Positions 37,978 to 48,557 of a DNA stretch of 64,000 nt are shown here, piece after piece (the stretch's first letter is position 1; the number at the start of each line of letters is the position of its first letter). The position numbers and the translations under genes are program-made. A model generated the notes under the pieces. The model worked only from the letters and a program-made list of their open reading frames with translations, was not told where the DNA came from and made no database searches. This stretch comes from Gammaproteobacteria bacterium (lineage in GTDB: Bacteria; Pseudomonadota; Gammaproteobacteria; Arenicellales; Poriferihabitantaceae): contig JAHEGU010000001.1 in NCBI GenBank assembly GCA_024644945.1, positions 217,937-281,936 on the forward strand, in the 5' to 3' direction.

Positions 37978-40137
37978 ATGAAGATGGCCAATGTTGCCGC
38001 TCAAAATAACTCCAAATCGGCTAATTCAGCCAACAACGGGGGCTCTTTGAAGGATCTGTCTTTGCAATCGGCATCGGTAGATATTTGGGACAAGAAATAT
38101 CGTCTTAAGACAATGGAAGGGGAACCAGTGGATGGTTCAGTAGATGAGACTTTTAAGCGGGTTGCTCGAGCCCTGGCAGAGGCTGAATTAGGGGAAGCCA
38201 AACAAGAGGAGTGGTATCGAAAGTTTGTTTGGGCGCTGCAGAACGGCGCAATTCCTGCTGGCCGTATTACTTCCAATGCCGGGGCGTTAGCGCATAAACC
38301 AGCCACTAGCACTATTAACTGCACCGTGTCTGCGACGGTGCCTGATTCTATGGATGGGGTGCTTCGTGCGGTGCATGAAGCAGGATTGACTCTAAAGGCA
38401 GGATGCGGCATCGGATACGAATTCTCCACGCTGCGCCCCAAGGGCGCATTTGTCAGCGGCGCCGGGGCTTATACCTCGGGGCCGCTGTCTTTTATGGATA
38501 TTTTTGATTCGATGTGTTTTACAGTTTCCTCTGCTGGCGGCCGCCGCGGGGCACAGATGGGAACCTTCGATATCAGCCATCCTGACATACAGGATTTTAT
38601 TCGTGCAAAACGTGAAAACGGACGCCTGAGACAGTTTAACTTGTCGTGTCTGATCACTGACGAGTTCATGCAGGCGGTAAAAGAAGATACGGACTGGCCG
38701 TTATCGTTTCCCGCGACTTCGAATGAAATTGATGATGATCGGTACGAGATAGTTTGGCGCAACTGGGCCATTACTGAAGGCTATACCACCAACGATCGTG
38801 GTGAAGTCGCCTGTCGCGTATACAAGACTATTCCAGCACGAAATCTGTGGAACCAAATTATGAGTTCCACCTATGACTATGCGGAGCCTGGCTTTATCCT
38901 GGTGGACCGCATTAATGAAATGAATAACAACTGGTTCTGCGAAAACATCCGGGCAACCAATCCCTGTGGAGAGCAACCTTTGCCGCCTTATGGTGCCTGT
39001 CTGCTGGGTTCTGTAAACCTCACCCGCTTCGTAGAAAACCCATTTACCGATGAAGCATCTTTCAGCTGGGAAAAGTATAGAGAAGTCGTGTCGGTGTTTT
39101 CCCGTATGTTGGATAACGTGGTGGAAATCAATGGATTGCCGCTACCCCAACAACGTGAGGAAATTTTAGCCAAGCGCCGGCATGGTATGGGCTTTCTCGG
39201 CCTTGGCTCTGCGTTAACCATGATGAAGATCAAATACGGCAGTGAGGAATCGCTCAAGTTTACCGAAGAAGTCGCGCGCCAAATGGCTCTGGTTGGCTGG
39301 GAAACAGGTATTGATTTGGCCGCAGAGAAGGGGTGTGCACCTGTACTAGAGCAGGAATTCGCGATAACTACCGAAATGCTTGCGCATCGTCCAGAAATGG
39401 CAGCAGACGGATTCAAGGTTGGCGATATGGTGCCCGGGGCAGTGCTGATGGGTAAGTACAGTCGCTATATGCAGCAGTTCCCGGAGGAACTGCAAAACCG
39501 TATTGCTCGGAAAGGTTGTCGTTATACTCACCACACCTCGATTGCTCCGACCGGAACCATCAGCCTTTCTCTGGGAAACAATGCGAGTAACGGTATAGAG
39601 CCTTCTTTCGGTCATATGTATAGCCGAAACGTGATTCGAGAAGGCAAGAAATCCAAGGAGAAAGTAGATGTATTTTCCTATGAGCTTTTAGCTTACCGAC
39701 ACCTGGTTAATGCCGATGCCTCGCCATTAGCGGAACAAGAGAACCACAAGCTGCCGGAATACTTTATCACCGCAGACGATATAAAACCGAAGCAACATGT
39801 TGACGTGCAGGCTGCGGCACAGAAATGGATAGACTCTTCTATTTCGAAAACCGCAAACGTGCCCACTGATTTCGCGTTTGAGGACTTTCAAGACATCTAC
39901 CAGTATGCATGGGAAAAAGGTCTCAAGGGTTGTACCACTTTTCGTTTTAATCCAGAGGTGTTTCAGGGCGTATTGGTAAAGGAGCAGGATCTTGAGAACA
40001 CGACGTATCGCTTCACCTTGGAAAATGGTGACGTGATCGAGGTTAAAGGAAATGAAGAGATTGCATATGATGGCGAAACCCATACCGCTGCGAATTTGTA
40101 TGATGCGCTGAAGGAAGGGTACTACGGCCGCTTTTAA
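37978..40137 (+). CDS. nrdJa: class II (adenosylcobalamin-dependent) ribonucleotide reductase, large N-terminal fragment
   Basis: 719 aa. Catalytic-loop motif ATNPCGEQPLPPYGACLLGSVNL, plus GIGYEFSTLRPKGA and GGRRGA. Confidence 0.95.
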   Translation: MKMANVAAQNNSKSANSANNGGSLKDLSLQSASVDIWDKKYRLKTMEGEPVDGSVDETFKRVARALAEAELGEAKQEEWYRKFVWALQNGAIPAGRITSNAGALAHKPATSTINCTVSATVPDSMDGVLRAVHEAGLTLKAGCGIGYEFSTLRPKGAFVSGAGAYTSGPLSFMDIFDSMCFTVSSAGGRRGAQMGTFDISHPDIQDFIRAKRENGRLRQFNLSCLITDEFMQAVKEDTDWPLSFPATSNEIDDDRYEIVWRNWAITEGYTTNDRGEVACRVYKTIPARNLWNQIMSSTYDYAEPGFILVDRINEMNNNWFCENIRATNPCGEQPLPPYGACLLGSVNLTRFVENPFTDEASFSWEKYREVVSVFSRMLDNVVEINGLPLPQQREEILAKRRHGMGFLGLGSALTMMKIKYGSEESLKFTEEVARQMALVGWETGIDLAAEKGCAPVLEQEFAITTEMLAHRPEMAADGFKVGDMVPGAVLMGKYSRYMQQFPEELQNRIARKGCRYTHHTSIAPTGTISLSLGNNASNGIEPSFGHMYSRNVIREGKKSKEKVDVFSYELLAYRHLVNADASPLAEQENHKLPEYFITADDIKPKQHVDVQAAAQKWIDSSISKTANVPTDFAFEDFQDIYQYAWEKGLKGCTTFRFNPEVFQGVLVKEQDLENTTYRFTLENGDVIEVKGNEEIAYDGETHTAANLYDALKEGYYGRF

Positions 40138-40212
40138 TCATTCCGGGCAACCAGGAGCAGCGGTAACGGGCTACAGCCCGGCCGCAAGAACCAATAGAAG
40201 AGAATCCAGAAA

Positions 40213-40938
40213 ATGAGCACCAAAATTGAAAAGAAAATTGTCGGCTACGATGTCGTCAAGTTGGAAGACAAACAGGAATCAGAGCCTGAACAAGTCATCA
40301 AGGAAACGATAGATAGTGACATCCGTGAGCAGGCCAAGATCGTGCAGATGCACGAGAAAGTAGTGCGACCGGAGATGTTAATTGGCAGCACTTATAAAAT
40401 CAAAACCCCAGTATCAGAGCACGCGTTTTATATTACGATCAACGATATGGTGTTGAACCCGGACACGCCTTATGAAAAGCGTCGACCATTCGAAATATTC
40501 ATAAACTCTAAAAACATGGATCATTACCAGTGGATTTCAGGGCTAACCTTGATTATTTCCGCGGTTTTTCGCAAAGGTGGCGATGTCACTTTTCTGGTTA
40601 ACGAATTGCAGAGTGTGTTTGATCCAAAAGGAGGGTATTTTAAAAAGGGCGGTAAGTTTATGCCGTCACTGGTCGCTGAGATCGGTGATGCGATAGAGAA
40701 CCACCTTAAGATGATCGGTATGATTGTCGATCCAGGGCTCGACGAGCATCAACAAAAACTGATCGATGAAAAACGCAAGGAATTCGCGACCCGACAAAAT
40801 GAGAGCACTGAAGCTGCAGCCGACAACAGTGGTTTCCCTGAGGGCGCTGCGCTATGTGGAAAGTGCAACATGAAGGCATCCATTATGATGGACGGTTGCT
40901 TGACCTGTCTGAATTGTGGAGACAGCAAGTGCGGTTAG
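40213..40938 (+). CDS. nrdJb: class II ribonucleotide reductase C-terminal fragment
   Basis: PFEIFINSKNMDHYQWISGLTLIISAVFRKGG continues the NrdJ core. Cys-rich tail CGKCNMKASIMMDGCLTCLNCGDSKCG. It lies 75 nt downstream of nrdJa on the same strand, as in the split Pseudomonas aeruginosa nrdJab. Confidence 0.85.
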   Translation: MSTKIEKKIVGYDVVKLEDKQESEPEQVIKETIDSDIREQAKIVQMHEKVVRPEMLIGSTYKIKTPVSEHAFYITINDMVLNPDTPYEKRRPFEIFINSKNMDHYQWISGLTLIISAVFRKGGDVTFLVNELQSVFDPKGGYFKKGGKFMPSLVAEIGDAIENHLKMIGMIVDPGLDEHQQKLIDEKRKEFATRQNESTEAAADNSGFPEGAALCGKCNMKASIMMDGCLTCLNCGDSKCG

Positions 40939-41961: not shown

Positions 41962-42360
41962 GTGAAAGAGATATCACACGGTCAGTGTTTGTGCGGGGAG
42001 CTGCGGTACGAGATAAACGGGCGCCCTTCATGGATTTCTCATTGCCACTGTCTCAGCTGTAGACGCAATACCGGCTGTGCGGTGGTTACCTTCTTAGGAT
42101 ATCCGGCTGAGAAAGTAAAGATTGTTCAGGGCGAACGGGCGATCTACAATTCTTCTCACGGGGTGCGTCGAGGATTTTGCAGCAAGTGTGGTACTCCAAT
42201 TAGCTATGAAGCGGACAGGTATCCAGGGGAAATTCACTTATACATCAGCGCCCTGGATAACCCGGATGACTTTAAGCCCGAACAACATGTTCATTTCGAC
42301 GAGAAAATAGCATGGTTTGATACCAATGATGATCTGCCTCGCAAAGAATCAAGTGGATAA
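41962..42360 (+). CDS. GFA (glutathione-dependent formaldehyde-activating / CENP-V-like) family protein
   Basis: GQCLCGELRYEI, HCHCLSCRR and FCSKCGTP zinc-Cys motifs. GTG start. Confidence 0.85.
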   Translation: MKEISHGQCLCGELRYEINGRPSWISHCHCLSCRRNTGCAVVTFLGYPAEKVKIVQGERAIYNSSHGVRRGFCSKCGTPISYEADRYPGEIHLYISALDNPDDFKPEQHVHFDEKIAWFDTNDDLPRKESSG

Positions 42361-42366
42361 TTTAAA

Positions 42367-42837
42367 TTGGCAAAGGAGCAGTTAAATCAGTTTAAGGCAG
42401 CAGACTCACAATTCGCGGAACGTGTGAAAGATAGCTTTCTCAAGCAAGACGCACTACTCACCATTGGTGCGACCATACAGAAAGTTGAACCTGGTAGCGT
42501 GGAAATCAGTTTTGACTATGACCAGCGTCTGACCCAGCAGCATGGATTTATTCATGCCGGAATACTGTCCACGGTGCTCGACAGTGCATGTGGATATGCG
42601 GCGTACAGTTTAATGCCTGCCGACGCGGGGGTGCTGACTATCGAATTTAAGACCAATCTGCTCTCTCCTGCCAAGGGTGAACGATTTGTTGCCGTGGGCG
42701 AGGTAAAGAAACCGGGCCGGACGATAACTGTAGCCGAAGGGCAAATGTTTGCCTGGGAGGGTGCTCAGGAGAAGCTTATTGCGACCATGACCGGCACACT
42801 GATGACGGTGACCGGTCGAAGCGAAGTCGCAGGTTAA
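42367..42837 (+). CDS. PaaI family (hotdog-fold) thioesterase
   Basis: QQHGFIHAGILSTVLDSACGYAA, GRTITVAEGQMF. TTG start. Convergent 4-nt overlap with the kinase gene. Confidence 0.85.
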   Translation: MAKEQLNQFKAADSQFAERVKDSFLKQDALLTIGATIQKVEPGSVEISFDYDQRLTQQHGFIHAGILSTVLDSACGYAAYSLMPADAGVLTIEFKTNLLSPAKGERFVAVGEVKKPGRTITVAEGQMFAWEGAQEKLIATMTGTLMTVTGRSEVAG

Positions 42838-44306
42838 GGGTTCAACAATCCTGCCTTTTCCAATTCCTGTGCGGTTGGAAATGCCGGTTGGTAAATATAG
42901 GCGTTGATTACACCCAGACTAAGCAGAGCTTCGTAGATCGAGGCGGAACCATCGCACTCGCCACGTCTGATCTGACCCACGCACTCCGACAATTGCTGCC
43001 ACGAACCGGTCCGCAGCAAATTATCCTGGGCCTGGTTGAGAATTGACTCTAATCGCAGTTCTCGTTCCAGTATTCCCAACGCATTGTTTACCATCAGGCC
43101 TGAGAAACGGGTTGAAGGAGAAAGGCCTGGCATTGCCTCCTGCTGCAGAGTCGTGCGAGTAATCGCGGCTAGGTTCCAGCCCCTCGACTGATCTTGTGCA
43201 ACCGGCTCAACCTTTGATATCCGTATTCGCGGGGCAGTCTCTGCACTGGTCCAGGGTGCTTTATGTTGCCAGCGTTCCGGACTGGTTTGGCGCAATATGT
43301 ATAATTCCAGCTGGTCGACTATACGACTGGTAATCGCCATATTGAGTGAAGGCTCTTGCCCGGAAAGGTGGCGCATTCCCTGCTGCAGAGCGATCAACGC
43401 CCATCTCAGATGGGCCATGGTCTCCCAGTACCTTACGCTGTCGTGGTTCACTTTACGCCCCGAGATTTCCTCGTAGCTTTTATAAAAATCCTTGCGCGCT
43501 CCAATTCCGCCCGCCTCCAGATCCGGCCTGCTGAATCGCCAGCACTCGGCACAGAACCAGCCGAGATCCGACATTGGATCGCCATAACCCGCGAACTCCC
43601 AATCGAGAATTGCGGCCAATCCATTTTCATTAACCAGGTAGTTCCCGGTTCGAAAGTCCCGATGCAAAAAAACCTGCTCCTGACAGGGAGGGACATGCGA
43701 TAGCCCCCAGCGCAGGCCCCAGTCCAGTATGGGACGGAACACTGATTTCTGTTCAAGCCAACTGCGCATATTCAAAAGCTCAGCTTCCGCATGGTTTTTC
43801 GTCGAGGTATCGATAAAATCAAGCTCCGTTTGCTCAGGCTCGATACTATGAATCAAGGCCAGCTGACGACCGAGCTCGCAGGTAAGCTGTTGTCGATCCC
43901 CTCCAAGTTGCAAGTCCTTGACCACCTTGGGTCCGAGGCCGACCCCCTCAACATATTCCATGATCGCGAAAGCCTTTCCAGTTACCGTTGGGTCATTACA
44001 AAAACCAAGGGTGGCAGGTACTTTAATACCCAATGATCCGGCTGCCGACATCAATATAAATTCCTGCTCCCGGCTGCGGCTTTCGTCAATAGAGGCAGCA
44101 GCGTCGGTGCGCATTACGAATTTACGCTCGCTGGGTCCCGTGCGAGATTCAACCAAACAATGCAGCAGCCAGTTCTCCTGTATTGCGCCACCTGACAGGC
44201 TATCAATAGATGTGACTTCCACACGAGCCACCCCGAGCCGTGAGGCAATCCACTTGCCTAGCCCCTGTTGTGAAATCTGGTGACTCTGATCTAGTTCCAT
44301 TTCCAA
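42834..44306 (-). CDS. APH/choline-kinase-fold phosphotransferase with unassigned C-terminal extension of about 150 aa
   Basis: Brenner/catalytic loop FLHRDFRTGNYLV, metal-binding ILDWEFAGYGDPMSDLG, N-lobe FVMR. 490 aa. The start overlaps the ACAD stop by 16 nt. Confidence 0.85.
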   Translation of the reverse strand: MEMELDQSHQISQQGLGKWIASRLGVARVEVTSIDSLSGGAIQENWLLHCLVESRTGPSERKFVMRTDAAASIDESRSREQEFILMSAAGSLGIKVPATLGFCNDPTVTGKAFAIMEYVEGVGLGPKVVKDLQLGGDRQQLTCELGRQLALIHSIEPEQTELDFIDTSTKNHAEAELLNMRSWLEQKSVFRPILDWGLRWGLSHVPPCQEQVFLHRDFRTGNYLVNENGLAAILDWEFAGYGDPMSDLGWFCAECWRFSRPDLEAGGIGARKDFYKSYEEISGRKVNHDSVRYWETMAHLRWALIALQQGMRHLSGQEPSLNMAITSRIVDQLELYILRQTSPERWQHKAPWTSAETAPRIRISKVEPVAQDQSRGWNLAAITRTTLQQEAMPGLSPSTRFSGLMVNNALGILERELRLESILNQAQDNLLRTGSWQQLSECVGQIRRGECDGSASIYEALLSLGVINAYIYQPAFPTAQELEKAGLLNP

Positions 44307-45628
44307 AAATCATTGCCTTGTCCTTGGTACAGGTCAGCCAGCACCATGCGATGCACTTCTGATGCACCATCGACCAGTTTTGCTTGCCGCGCGTAGCGAT
44401 AAATCCACTCCAGCACCGTGTCCTTTGAATAGCCCTTGGCGCCACAAAGCTGAATTGCTGTGTCTGCGGATTTGTGCAGCACTTCAGCAACATGGACCTT
44501 AGCCATTGAGATTTCCTTTTTTGCGCGCTCTCCCTGGTCTAGTTTCCATGCGGCATGCATGACCAGCAGGCGCCCGACCTGAATGTTATGCGCCACTTCC
44601 CCTAGTTTCAATTGAACCGATTCCCTTTGTGATAGTCGCACGCCGAAGCCTTCTCGATGATTGACATATTCCGCGGCGATCTCCATACAGCGTTTGGAAA
44701 GACCCAGCCAGCGCATACAGTGTGTCAACCTCGCAGGACCCAAACGAATCTGTGTCAGCTTCAAGCCATCGCCAACCTCCATTAGTCGATGACAGTCCGG
44801 GATCTGCAGTCCATCAAAGCGAAGCTCACAATGTCCTCCATGTTCTTCGGGTCCCATAATTGGTATTCTGCGCACGATTTCCCACCCTGGTTGATCGCGG
44901 TGAAACAGAAATGCGCTGAGTGCTCGACGTTTTTCCTCCGGGTCTGGTTCGGTACGTGCGACTAATATGAAATGCGCTGCATTAGCGGCGCCGGTAATGA
45001 ACCATTTATGGCCGTTGATGATCCATTCACCGCCTTTGCGGGTTGCGCTGGTGCGGATCATGGAAGGGTCCGACCCACCACCCGGAGCGGGTTCGGTCAT
45101 AACAAATGCCGACTGCACTTGACCGTCAATAACAGGTTGCAGCCACCGGTCTTTCTGTTTACTGGAGGCGACTTGTTGTAACACCCGCATATTGCCGTCA
45201 TCCGGCGCCGCGCAATTGAATGTGACAGGGCCGAAAATCGAGCGATTAGCTTCCTCATACATGGCCGCACAAGCCGTCATGGAGAGACCCATCCCGCCAC
45301 GAGCGGTGTCGATTTGGGGCGCCCAAAGACCCGCGTTGCGCGCCTTTTTGCGCAAGCTTGTCAGCGTCTGTATGCGGATGTTTTCATGTTCATCAAAATT
45401 GCCAGGATCAGCTTCAAGCGGGATCAAATATTCAGTGACGAAATCTCGGGTTTTGGCTCTGATTAATTCCGCTTCACTATCCAGGTTGAAATTGATGCCA
45501 GGGGTAGGCGTATTCATGTCGCGAGGTCGAGTCCGAACAGGGTCGCGAATTGTAACCTTTACTAGATTGGTGTGCTGTTGATCTTTGGGTGAGTAATGAG
45601 CTTCGATTTCCGAGAATTCGGAGTTCAA
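44291..45628 (-). CDS. acyl-CoA dehydrogenase, ACAD10/ACAD11-like
   Basis: FVMTEPAPGGGSDPS, WFITGA, LGPARLTHCMRWLG, YARQAKLVDGASEVH (catalytic Glu region). 445 aa. The start overlaps the VWA stop by 4 nt. Confidence 0.9.
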   Translation of the reverse strand: MNSEFSEIEAHYSPKDQQHTNLVKVTIRDPVRTRPRDMNTPTPGINFNLDSEAELIRAKTRDFVTEYLIPLEADPGNFDEHENIRIQTLTSLRKKARNAGLWAPQIDTARGGMGLSMTACAAMYEEANRSIFGPVTFNCAAPDDGNMRVLQQVASSKQKDRWLQPVIDGQVQSAFVMTEPAPGGGSDPSMIRTSATRKGGEWIINGHKWFITGAANAAHFILVARTEPDPEEKRRALSAFLFHRDQPGWEIVRRIPIMGPEEHGGHCELRFDGLQIPDCHRLMEVGDGLKLTQIRLGPARLTHCMRWLGLSKRCMEIAAEYVNHREGFGVRLSQRESVQLKLGEVAHNIQVGRLLVMHAAWKLDQGERAKKEISMAKVHVAEVLHKSADTAIQLCGAKGYSKDTVLEWIYRYARQAKLVDGASEVHRMVLADLYQGQGNDFWKWN

Positions 45629-46776
45629 ATGGCGATGCCGCCAATTTCTCGGATAGTGGCACGAAGCGACTCAACACTGTTGGCAGGCATAAAACGATCA
45701 ACCATGGGCAGCGAGCGTTTGAGCTCGGTTGCATCGAGTGATACGCCTGCTCTCCCTAGCATGGGATTTAGCCAGATAACGCTTCTCGCATTACTGTGTA
45801 AAACTTGGAGCTCATACTCAAGTGACTCATGATGGTCGGTATCGAATCCATCGCTTATGATAAGTACTATGGTTTTCGAGTTTAGCGCCTTCCTCGAAAA
45901 CTCCCGGTTAAAGGTTGCGATTGAGGTCGCAATGCATGTGCCGCCCATCCATAGGTTGTTGCCCGCTTCTAACCGGGTCTGCATGCGAGCAAGAGAAGCT
46001 TCACGAAACATTCGGGTGACCGGAAACAACCTGGTATGAAAAGCAAATACCGAGGAGTCAGGGAAGGTCTTTATCAGGCCGCGGACAAATCGAAATAGGA
46101 GCGGATTGTTCCAAGTCATAGAGTGGGAGACATCGTGCAGAATAACCAGGTGCAGCGGCACCGGCTTACGCTTAGTGAAACGGACACGTGCAGGAAATCC
46201 ACCGGTCGCGAGACTGCCGCGGAGTGTTCGACGAATATCCAGACGCCCTCCTCGGGGCGAAACCACTCGCTTCCTTGAAAGCTGCTTTCGTAACTGGCGA
46301 CCAAGATGCTCTGCAATTAATTCTGCCTCGCGCATCGCTACTTTGTCGCCGAGAAACCGGAAATCCGCCTTACCAACGGATCGATTGCGCCCAGCTCCTG
46401 CGCCATCGACGGGTAGATCGTGCTGACCGTGCTCGGAATCTTGACTGCTGGATCCGGAAATTCCGCTGGCTGTTTTGTGGCGCAACCGAGGGTCGATTCT
46501 GGCCAACAGTTCCTGTTGAGGGTCAGGTATATCCTCAGGGCGCCAAAAAGCCGAGAAGTGTCGATCAAATTGCTGCCAGTCTTCGTAGTTGCGGCAACTC
46601 AGTGCTCGCACACTCGCTTTGATCAGGTCAGGATCTGGGTAGCCGGACTCACTTGCGGTTTTTAGTATGTCGGTGGTTTCCCCGACCCCGATGACATAAC
46701 CCTGTTTTCGAAGGTAACCGATAAAATCGAGTAGGCGGTTACCTGGCGGACTCAGAGTGTTCGCAGTTGTCGTCAC
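45625..46776 (-). CDS. VWA domain protein, CoxE-like
   Basis: N-terminal LLDFIGYLRKQGYVIGVGETTDILK (CoxE-family pattern), MIDAS LHDVSHSM (DxSxS), C-terminal VIWLNPM. The start overlaps the MoxR stop by 4 nt. Confidence 0.85.
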   Translation of the reverse strand: MTTTANTLSPPGNRLLDFIGYLRKQGYVIGVGETTDILKTASESGYPDPDLIKASVRALSCRNYEDWQQFDRHFSAFWRPEDIPDPQQELLARIDPRLRHKTASGISGSSSQDSEHGQHDLPVDGAGAGRNRSVGKADFRFLGDKVAMREAELIAEHLGRQLRKQLSRKRVVSPRGGRLDIRRTLRGSLATGGFPARVRFTKRKPVPLHLVILHDVSHSMTWNNPLLFRFVRGLIKTFPDSSVFAFHTRLFPVTRMFREASLARMQTRLEAGNNLWMGGTCIATSIATFNREFSRKALNSKTIVLIISDGFDTDHHESLEYELQVLHSNARSVIWLNPMLGRAGVSLDATELKRSLPMVDRFMPANSVESLRATIREIGGIAI

Positions 46777-47648
46777 GCGCTTTTTTTAAGCAGCGTCGCC
46801 ATTTGCTCCTGATTAACTGCTTCGAGGTCGTCTCTGGTTTTGAGAAAACATCCTCGGGTCTGAAACAGAGCTTCTACATTATCCTCAAGTTCGGTGATAC
46901 CCAGGCCCTGCAGCGCGGCGCACCAGTCTAATGTTTCAGCAATTCCTGGTGACTTGGCTAGATCCTGCATTCTGAGGGCCTGGATAAAATTAACCACCTG
47001 GGCTGTCATCCTATGGTCGAACTCCGGAACGCGTTGTTCGACGATCGCTATTTCTCGCTCTCGATCCGGGTAGTCCAGATAGTGATAGAGGCAGCGTCGC
47101 CTCAGAGCATCGCTCAACTCCCGGGTTCCGTTTGAGGTCAGAATAACGCGAGGAAAGGAACGCGCTTTGATGGTCCCTAATTCTGGAATTGAAATCTGGA
47201 ACTCCGATAACAATTCGAGCAAAAATGCTTCGAACGCTTCATCCGCCCGATCTATTTCATCGATCAGCAGAATCGGTGGCTCGTCCTGCATTATTGACTG
47301 TAATAGTGGCCTCTCCAGCAGGAACTCCCGATCAAATATATGTGGCGTTTGCTGCTTTATATTTGATTCATGCAGCTTGATCGACAATAACTGTCTACTG
47401 TAATTCCACTCATAAACCGCTGCACTGGTATCCAATCCTTCATAACACTGCAGCCGAATCAGTTTACAGCCCTCAATTTTTGCCATGGTTGTAGCGACTT
47501 CCGTTTTGCCTACGCCGGCTTCTCCTTCGATCAAAAGCGGCCGTTCCAGCTGCTGCATCAATACAATAGTTGTAATTAATGCCGTATCGGCGATATATCC
47601 CGCCTCGGTAAAGCGAGACCGAAGTTCGGATACGGATTGGCTGTTCAT
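46773..47648 (-). CDS. MoxR-class AAA+ ATPase, CoxD-like
   Basis: Walker A IEGEAGVGKTE, Walker B LLIDEIDRADE, sensor region ILTSN. The likely start is MNSQSVSELR (cat 47646-47648) rather than the ORF-track start at 47723. Confidence 0.9.
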   Translation of the reverse strand: MNSQSVSELRSRFTEAGYIADTALITTIVLMQQLERPLLIEGEAGVGKTEVATTMAKIEGCKLIRLQCYEGLDTSAAVYEWNYSRQLLSIKLHESNIKQQTPHIFDREFLLERPLLQSIMQDEPPILLIDEIDRADEAFEAFLLELLSEFQISIPELGTIKARSFPRVILTSNGTRELSDALRRRCLYHYLDYPDREREIAIVEQRVPEFDHRMTAQVVNFIQALRMQDLAKSPGIAETLDWCAALQGLGITELEDNVEALFQTRGCFLKTRDDLEAVNQEQMATLLKKSA

Positions 47649-47792
47649 AAACGACTGACAAGGGGAATATTGCGTGAAGTATAGCGCACCGTCGTTTTCG
47701 GTCAGGCAGCATGGAAGTCTCAATTCAGATCAAATATGCGATAGCGATTGGGTGACACGACTGAGACATATGCAACAATTTTTGACCACTTG

Positions 47793-47871
47793 TGACAATC
47801 ATTGTCAGCCGAATTCTTGCCTCCAAGGGGATAAAACTAAAAATTGTGAGCGCAGCTGATCAGAGTGATCA
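47793..47871. promoter_or_regulatory. two palindromic elements, candidate upstream activator sites for the sigma-54 promoter
   Basis: TGACAAT-C-ATTGTCA is a perfect 7-1-7 palindrome at 47793-47807. TGATCA-GAG-TGATCA lies at 47857-47871. They sit about 160 and about 90 bp upstream of the -24 element and are followed by a very AT-rich stretch (47875-47940) that could bend DNA. Confidence 0.3.
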
Positions 47872-47952
47872 ATAATTACAAATAAATATAAACTAATAAA
47901 AACAACAAGATACGGATATTTATCTAATTTTTTTAAACTGAATGGGAAAGGT

Positions 47953-47967
47953 TGGCACAGCCTTTGC
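47953..47967 (+). promoter_or_regulatory. sigma-54 (RpoN) -24/-12 promoter
   Basis: TGGCACAGCCTTTGC is an exact match to TGGCAC-N5-TTGC (GG-N10-GC spacing). It is intergenic and points away from the divergent MoxR operon. Confidence 0.6.
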
Positions 47968-47978
47968 TTTAAACAAAT

Positions 47979-48101
47979 CAGACAGCAATGCTGGGGGTTG
48001 AGACCAGTACCGAACCATATGTAGAGGTGAAAGTGGTACGTTAGTGGATCGACTCAATACCAGCGGATTAGTCCGCTGGTATTGAGCGATCCCTTTTTTT
48101 T
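47979..48101 (+). ncRNA. candidate sigma-54-dependent small RNA or terminated leader, about 120 nt
   Basis: Bounded by the predicted start about 12 nt after the -12 GC and by a strong intrinsic terminator. The only internal ORF is 11 codons. I recognise no known RNA family. Confidence 0.4.
48047..48101 (+). terminator. rho-independent terminator
   Basis: Perfect 15-bp stem CTCAATACCAGCGGA / TCCGCTGGTATTGAG (48053-48067 / 48072-48086) with loop TTAG. It extends by GATCG/CGATC with one bulge and is followed by CCC plus T8 (48094-48101). There is no T-run on the opposite strand. Confidence 0.8.
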
Positions 48102-48197
48102 CAGCAGGTGGGACCTGGGGGGGTCCCGTTGAATACCGGCTGGATCCCGAAAGGCATTTAGGATCGTCCGTGATGACGATCAACAGGAGACAAAACG

Positions 48198-48557
48198 ATG
48201 CATACTGAAATTAGTCAACGGGACCTGGATAGTCTGGCAGAGCTTTCGAGCAAGATGGTGCACAGTGTCGATTTTTCTGAGAACGAGAATTTCGACTCAG
48301 ACCGAATTACATTTCTTCACTTACTCAGTCAACTTGATACCCGCTACGGTAACCACGAGCTCCTGTTTGACGCGCGCAGTATCGTTTTATGCAAACCTTT
48401 CCGTAAACTCGATCTTTACACACTCACCAGAGACCTTGTTCGAATGGCCCGAACTGGTAATACAGACTTAACACTTCAATCAACAGACGAAATTGTGCCT
48501 GTCATTCCTGCAACGATGGTATCGACTGTTCAACCTGCCAACGTTCTGGCTTGCTGA
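48198..48557 (+). CDS. hypothetical protein
   Basis: 119 aa with an AGGAG Shine-Dalgarno 8 nt upstream. No recognisable motifs. The leader contains hairpins GGGACC/GGTCCC (48110-48127) and GATCGTC/GACGATC (48162-48181). Confidence 0.5.
   Translation: MHTEISQRDLDSLAELSSKMVHSVDFSENENFDSDRITFLHLLSQLDTRYGNHELLFDARSIVLCKPFRKLDLYTLTRDLVRMARTGNTDLTLQSTDEIVPVIPATMVSTVQPANVLAC

Follow-up and report, generated by a model that had tools for sequence, protein, structure and literature searches.

The region described here lies on the minus strand of contig JAHEGU010000001.1 of a gammaproteobacterium (GenBank assembly GCA_024644945.1), within a window of 64,000 nucleotides (nt), this being the whole stretch of DNA that was analysed. 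It comprises four genes, which encode a MoxR-type AAA+ ATPase, a CoxE-type VWA protein, an acyl-CoA dehydrogenase (ACAD)-fold enzyme and an APH-fold kinase. Very probably, these genes represent two independent two-gene units, MoxR-VWA and ACAD-kinase, which follow one another head-to-tail in a single small clade of uncultured gammaproteobacteria that are Acidiferrobacterales-like. A four-part MoxR-VWA-ACAD-kinase system is not supported, and the adjacency is confined to one lineage, in which a catabolic module of known type lies beside an orphan MoxR-VWA pair. There is no evidence that the two units work together; in the window's clade they may share one read-through transcript. The features of the region, with lengths in amino acids (aa) where proteins are concerned and including the convergent neighbouring gene, are as follows.

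46773..47648, minus strand: MoxR-type AAA+ ATPase, 291 aa, first gene of the self-contained MoxR-VWA pair (Pfam AAA_5 and AAA)
45625..46776, minus strand: CoxE-type VWA protein, 383 aa (Pfam VWA_CoxE, 176.5 bits)
45518..45624, minus strand: VWA-ACAD spacer, 107 nt, from the VWA stop to the probable ACAD start, with GTTACAAT motif
44291..45517, minus strand: ACAD10/11-LvaC-type enzyme of the acyl-CoA dehydrogenase fold, 408 aa if counted from the ATG at 45517 (N, M and C domains of Pfam ACAD)
42834..44306, minus strand: APH-fold kinase with C-terminal DUF6285, 488-490 aa (Pfam APH, 112.6 bits, residues 38-271)
42921..43130, minus strand: DUF6285 domain within the kinase open reading frame (ORF), residues ~393-462 (PF19802, 24.7-27.5 bits, just below the cut-off of 28.1 bits)
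42367..42837, plus strand: PaaI-like hotdog thioesterase, convergent neighbour belonging to neither module (Pfam 4HBT, TIGR00369)

An earlier note on this DNA had identified the four minus-strand genes correctly. The ORFs are found at the coordinates given there, within 42834-47723, strong Pfam matches were obtained for all of them, and the motifs quoted (GEAGVGKTE, LLIDEIDRA, DVSHS, HRDFRTGNYLV, DWEFAGYGDP, LGPARLTHCMRWLG and DGASEVH) are all present in the translations. The note had further proposed that the MoxR-VWA pair is hard-wired to kinase plus ACAD, and had named beforehand conservation of the adjacency across distant genera as support for a functional system and restriction to this genome or its close relatives as refutation. 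Comparison of loci revealed the latter. On the ACAD side, the sample consisted of the best 80 of at least 594 stretches encoding relatives in species-representative genomes, with 64-73% identity and a distribution over Alpha-, Beta- and Gammaproteobacteria. Searching these with the window proteins by tblastn detected neither MoxR nor VWA within ±8 kb of the ACAD gene at any of the 80 loci, and the further close ACAD homologues at loci L081/L082, L142 and L143 are likewise without MoxR and VWA. On the VWA side, about 55 further loci were compared, 51 of them from a metagenome scan. An ACAD gene is located downstream of the VWA gene at one of the 51 metagenome loci (L088) and at two of the approximately 55 altogether (L088 and L139), both belonging to the window's own clade. 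Moreover, in the Acidiferrobacterales metagenome-assembled genome (MAG) GCA_019633985.1 the two pairs are situated on different contigs, with MoxR-VWA standing beside other, unrelated genes.

Syntenic slot and gene junctions

In the window and its syntenic relatives, the genes occupy a common slot, which is bordered by genes for an S49 peptidase, GST, patatin, SLT_4 and a small ORF on one side and by genes for TSCPD and ribonucleotide reductase (RNR) on the other. Within this slot each pair is also found alone, and the gene content varies as follows.

ACAD-kinase only: L081/L082 (Acidiferrobacterales MAG GCA_019633985.1, ACAD 75% identical) and L142
MoxR-VWA only, the thioesterase being present or absent: L084, L140, L141 and L085
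All four genes: the window (and its identical contig L083), L139 and L088 (partial contig)

At L084, precisely the segment equivalent to 45643-42836 of the window, which holds spacer, ACAD and kinase, is missing, and homology resumes in the thioesterase gene (blastn). Pairwise identities divide these loci into three sublineages, one formed by the window, one by L139 and L088, and one by L084, L140 and L141. The adjacency would have arisen in a variable slot between the SLT_4/orf119 and the TSCPD/RNR genes, where one cassette was gained or lost. Most simply, the ancestor of the small clade had all four genes, and one of the sublineages later lost ACAD-kinase cleanly; whichever history holds, each pair is dispensable without the other. 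By GC and GC3, the two pairs can be told apart neither from one another nor from their flanks, and composition therefore provides no evidence of recent transfer. The locus can thus be regarded as a worked example of a variable chromosomal slot yielding a convincing-looking yet non-conserved 'operon'.

The PaaI-like thioesterase gene converges on the kinase gene with a 4-nt overlap of the stop codons (42834-42837), as had been described, and its product had been suggested to belong to the same acyl-CoA chemistry. This suggestion found no support. The gene is absent from all 80 ACAD loci, and it adjoins the VWA gene in L084, L140 and L141, all of which are without ACAD-kinase. Because it is kept with VWA where ACAD-kinase is missing and does not accompany the ACAD elsewhere, the thioesterase is not tied to the ACAD chemistry.

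All four genes had been proposed to form one co-translated unit on the basis of overlapping stop and start codons at three junctions. Two of these overlaps could be confirmed. MoxR and VWA share the four nucleotides GTGA at 46773-46776, and ACAD and kinase overlap by 16 nt if the kinase starts at the TTG at 44306, or by 10 nt if it starts at the ATG at 44300, which is the gene caller's choice on the identical contig L083. The third overlap, of 4 nt at 45625-45628 between VWA and ACAD, is an artefact of taking the longest ORF, as it exists only if an ORF of 445 aa is read from its most upstream TTG. The ACAD homologues are 399-414 aa long and cover only 90% of this ORF. Furthermore, the ACADs of L139 and L088 begin at an equivalent ATG (MSTSNPGINF...), which follows a spacer of 123-125 nt with in-frame stop codons. 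In view of the homologue lengths and of the equivalent ATG in relatives of the same layout, the ACAD most likely starts at the ATG at 45517, leaving a spacer of 107 nt (45518-45624) behind the VWA gene. Two coupled pairs are therefore joined by a spacer instead of being linked in a four-gene chain of overlaps, which weakens the proposal of four-gene co-translation.

About 40 nt upstream of the ACAD start codon, the GTTACAAT motif is found in three four-gene loci, namely the window, L139 (spacer 2419-2541) and L088 (~1735-1858), and an alignment of the leader sequences revealed its absence upstream of the ACAD in L081. The motif, common to the three four-gene loci only, could be an internal -10 element. 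A scan of positions 42300-48300 for promoters and terminators gave counts no better than those of shuffled sequences, with no terminator-like or promoter-like site in the VWA-ACAD spacer. Since no terminator is predicted, read-through from MoxR-VWA into ACAD-kinase is possible. A PADLOC scan of the four proteins gave no match to a defence system beyond trivial P-loop hits.

ACAD-kinase module

The ACAD had been placed in the ACAD10/11-LvaC branch, an assignment borne out by both its best solved relative and its signature residues. The three Pfam domains of the ACAD fold, Acyl-CoA_dh_N, _M and _1, are all matched above their cut-offs, the three scores being 129, 71 and 47 bits. The best matches in the PDB are mouse and human ACAD11 (8v3u and 2wbi, 215 bits), followed by ordinary ACADs with at most 163 bits. 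In a residue alignment to 8v3u, IRLGPARLTHCMR of the window protein is positioned opposite GRLGPGRIHHCMR, and VDGASEVH opposite ADGPDEVH. Equivalents of mouse ACAD11 Arg626, Arg631, the His634-Cys-Met-Arg637 (HCMR) motif and the catalytic residue Asp753 are all conserved. According to PMC12440821, from which their roles are known, Arg626, Arg631, His634 and Arg637, together with a catalytic Asp (Asp753) in place of Glu, are features of ACAD10/11 and LvaC. The ACAD is thus predicted to be an enzyme which eliminates phosphate from 4-phosphoacyl-CoA, a reaction that in this subgroup would proceed without net FAD reduction.

The kinase proved to be an ACAD10/11/LvaA-like APH protein, as had been proposed. 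In addition to the strong Pfam match, the APH signatures are present, with HRDFRTGN as catalytic loop (HxDxxxxN) and DWEF as metal-binding motif. In the PDB it matches 3dxp, a structural-genomics protein of the APH fold, with 60 bits and the kinase domain of ACAD11 with 52 bits. The C-terminal part of about 150 aa, which had been left unassigned, corresponds to the DUF6285 region (PF19802). At related ACAD loci most kinases comprise 340-360 aa and are followed by an ORF of 110-140 aa, which often overlaps the kinase stop codon. Eleven of these free-standing ORFs are detectably homologous to the C-terminal domain of the window kinase (phmmer, E-values from 1.7e-15 to 2e-4). Each of the 22 sequences aligned, of which 19 are ORFs standing alone and 3 are C-termini of kinases, matches PF19802, with a best E-value of 1.1e-21. 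Altogether, DUF6285 ORFs are present in at least 25 of the 80 ACAD loci. Fusions of APH and DUF6285 were observed at L014 (7083-8654), L060 (2401-3912), L081 (4539-6002), L139 (3759-5225) and L142 (4413-5891). They are found in Alcaligenaceae and in the window's clade, and in most other lineages DUF6285 is a separate ORF. The occurrence of fusions in both groups indicates that fusion and fission of kinase and DUF6285 took place more than once.

In Pseudomonas putida, the 12-kDa protein LvaB is encoded next to lvaA, co-purifies with LvaA and is required for phosphorylation, as summarized in PMC6692424 with reference to Rand et al. 2017. Because DUF6285 occurs either free-standing or fused to the kinase, an LvaB-like kinase partner appears to be the likely functional assignment for this Pfam family. 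A search with a profile built from the DUF6285 alignment returned 116 proteins, nearly all of them annotated as PF19802 and none from Pseudomonas, and none of the papers searched mentions DUF6285. The fused protein of the window is predicted to be a 4-hydroxyacyl-CoA kinase.

Taken as a unit, ACAD and kinase::DUF6285 would constitute a minimal module of the lva or ACAD10/11 type. The kinase, with its fused LvaB-like DUF6285 domain, would phosphorylate the 4-hydroxyl group of a 4-hydroxyacyl-CoA, and the ACAD-fold flavoenzyme would then eliminate the phosphate to give a 2-enoyl-CoA, which could enter β-oxidation. The basis for inferring this chemistry is the conservation of signature residues together with the literature on LvaA, LvaB and LvaC, the Burkholderia pseudomallei orthologues, and ACAD10 and ACAD11. 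An unfused kinase-ACAD module is not new, since LvaA/LvaC of P. putida and their orthologues in B. pseudomallei are bacterial pairs of this kind that have already been characterized biochemically (PMC11342911, PMC6692424).

The P. putida lva operon encodes the kinase LvaA, its 12-kDa partner LvaB, the ACAD LvaC, the short-chain dehydrogenase/reductase (SDR) LvaD and the CoA ligase LvaE, and its published chemistry leads from 4-hydroxyacyl-CoA via 4-phosphoacyl-CoA to enoyl-CoA (PMC11342911, PMC6692424). The window resembles this operon and the LvaA/LvaC pair of B. pseudomallei in that an unfused APH-type kinase adjoins an ACAD10/11-like ACAD. Further similarities to the lva operon are the small DUF6285 partner accompanying the kinase, a putative counterpart of LvaB which is free-standing in most relatives, and the SDR and AMP-binding ligase of related clusters. 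In contrast to the lva operon, the ACAD gene precedes the kinase gene, kinase and DUF6285 are fused, and no SDR, ligase or LvaR-type regulator is encoded adjacent to them. Similarity to animal ACAD10 and ACAD11 extends from the best solved relative and the retained signature residues of the ACAD to the match between the kinase and the ACAD11 kinase domain. Unlike the animal proteins, kinase and ACAD of the window are separate polypeptides, the kinase carries DUF6285, and a HAD domain is lacking.

Within the 80 ACAD loci, the kinase gene is situated directly downstream of the ACAD gene in 36, and the remaining 44 have no adjacent kinase. An SDR gene is found directly upstream in 52 loci and a gene for an AMP-binding CoA ligase in 31. 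As SDR and CoA ligase accompany the module, the gene content of the related clusters is lvaABCDE-like. The widespread form of the cluster in L001-L080 has the order SDR, ACAD, APH kinase and small DUF6285 ORF, with or without the AMP-binding CoA ligase; examples can be seen at L014 (5045-5839) and L019 (5455-7122).

MoxR-VWA pair

The MoxR protein matches Pfam AAA_5 with 46 bits and displays GEAGVGKTE as Walker A and LLIDEIDRA as Walker B motif. In the VWA protein, the metal ion-dependent adhesion site (MIDAS), Asp215-x-Ser217-x-Ser219, is invariant in 20 homologues. Together, these proteins would form a self-contained AAA+/VWA remodelling pair of the CoxD/CoxE-like kind, with a MoxR hexamer and VWA as its adaptor. 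MoxR is encoded directly upstream of VWA in all metagenome loci whose flank reaches far enough, about 45 among the 51. The other neighbours differ from locus to locus, without any one partner gene being conserved. MoxR-VWA is a widespread pair of Gammaproteobacteria, always paired and at the same time orphan, with a client at no fixed neighbouring position.

As in CoxD/CoxE, which take part in the maturation of the Mo-Cu CO dehydrogenase, translational coupling joins a MoxR AAA+ protein to a VWA_CoxE protein whose MIDAS is intact. In contrast to CoxD/CoxE, neither coxLMS nor genes of the xanthine dehydrogenase family lie near MoxR-VWA, either in the window or in syntenic relatives. The nearest NCBIfam models, MadB for MoxR (284 bits versus 475) and MadC for VWA (60 bits versus 600), remain far below their equivalog cut-offs, and an NCBIfam scan of the small ORFs flanking MoxR-VWA gave no 'MadA'-type partner. 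A literature search on MadB/MadC in connection with AAA, VWA and MoxR proteins yielded unrelated 'Mad' proteins only. Sequence searches of the PDB returned nothing for VWA and, for MoxR, only AAA modules of midasin and no close structure.

In eight loci, a cytoplasmic molybdopterin S/N-oxide reductase of the BisC/TorA family (TIGR00509, 947 bits) is encoded within 0.3-2.5 kb of MoxR-VWA. The reductase gene lies on the opposite strand in these loci (L092, L099, L102-L104, L114, L119 and L130), upstream of the pair in seven of them and downstream in L130. As molybdo-enzymes are matured by CoxD/CoxE pairs, this neighbour deserves attention; the association is confined to one group of loci.

RNR genes constitute a further recurrent neighbour. 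They are linked to MoxR-VWA in the window and in L084, L085, L092, L099, L102-L106, L114, L119, L128, L140 and L141. In ten loci the neighbour is an nrdA gene of ~965 aa on the same strand, and in the window's clade it is an RNR barrel with a separate TSCPD protein.

Alternative readings and flanking region

The earlier note had interpreted MoxR/VWA as a dedicated chaperone or gate for a kinase-ACAD complex, all four genes forming one co-translated system, an arrangement that would have added a new, chaperone-dependent class of acyl-CoA modules. The common strand, the tight coupling within each pair, the four-gene layout shared by the window, L139 and L088, and the lack of a predicted terminator between VWA and ACAD are consistent with this model. 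However, MoxR/VWA are encoded at none of the 80 ACAD loci and the ACAD at just two of the approximately 55 further VWA loci, the pairs are unlinked in GCA_019633985.1, and the VWA/ACAD overlap is lost with the most likely ACAD start. Similarly diverged sister lineages lack ACAD-kinase (L084, L140, L141) and others lack MoxR-VWA (L081, L142) in the very same slot. Moreover, the bacterial and mammalian kinase/ACAD enzymes so far characterized are active in vitro in the absence of such factors (PMC11342911, PMC12440821). Taken together, the evidence argues against the four-gene system, and the chaperone model has to be considered very improbable. The same very low probability is assigned to a narrower version, in which MoxR-VWA has been recruited secondarily in this clade, is co-transcribed via the 107-nt spacer and assembles or regulates a complex of ACAD tetramer and kinase. 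If true, this would represent a lineage-specific chaperone dependence of a flavoenzyme.

Several points weigh against the reading as two independent units, one of them a module of the lva type. Linkage was judged by gene adjacency at the loci compared. The four-gene layout has been kept in at least two sublineages, whose proteins now share no more than 69-82% identity (L139/L088 compared with the window), all four genes are located on the same strand, and no terminator-like site is seen in the VWA-ACAD spacer; room is thus left for co-transcription and for some clade-specific functional use of the four genes. With regard to the module, a complete operon of the lvaABCDE type is not realized in the window, where neither SDR nor acyl-CoA synthetase is encoded adjacent to it, and DUF6285 is equated with an LvaB-type partner, here fused, by inference from its size, position and partner.

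Two further possibilities concern the units individually. MoxR-VWA could serve a client encoded nearby, the obvious candidate being RNR, with the adjacency of ACAD-kinase being incidental. An RNR large-subunit gene is found 0.5-4 kb downstream of VWA in 14 of the 31 loci with enough flank, and two RNR types are involved, a class Ia-like form of ~965 aa and a split class II form (window 37978-40938). However, no RNR gene lies nearby in the other 17 loci, the RNR is on the opposite strand in the window's clade, a literature search gave no link, and the loci with linked nrdA are closely related to one another (NrdA identity 77-88%), so that inherited synteny suffices to explain the pattern. The proximity may reflect such synteny or hint at a client; RNR as the client of the pair is regarded as quite unlikely. 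For the ACAD-kinase unit, a mechanism like that of the lva enzymes could operate in a different pathway, on a substrate other than a simple 4-hydroxy fatty acyl-CoA, for example a lactone-derived or branched γ-hydroxy acid or one unrelated to levulinate. Such a substrate would fit the lack of the SDR and CoA ligase which flank the module in most relatives, the weak match of the kinase to the ACAD11 kinase domain (52 bits), and the moderate HMMER score of the ACAD to mouse ACAD11 (215 bits), to be seen beside the 56-62% identity reported between LvaC and ACAD10/11 (PMC11342911). However, the ACAD retains every signature residue of ACAD10/11 for phosphate binding and catalysis, and related clusters agree with lvaABCDE in gene content, which makes an alternative substrate unlikely, although somewhat less so than the RNR client. 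For the reading as two independent units, the remaining gain is one more bacterial pair of 4-hydroxyacyl-CoA kinase and ACAD10/11-type lyase, from an uncultured Acidiferrobacterales-like lineage.

Upstream of the MoxR gene, the divergent intergenic region (47649-48197) contains a strong hairpin, CTCAATACCAGCGGA...TCCGCTGGTATTGAG, at 48046-48092. An Rfam scan of positions 47500-48400 matched no family; its only hit, to a miRNA on the hairpin, was below threshold and without meaning. Together with the flanking non-coding sequence, the hairpin is kept in L084, in L085 and in L081, where the first downstream gene is the ACAD and not MoxR. At the far end of this region, an ORF of 119 aa (48198-48557, plus strand) without Pfam or NCBIfam match is kept with a length of 93-124 aa beside SLT_4, at the same position, in all syntenic relatives.

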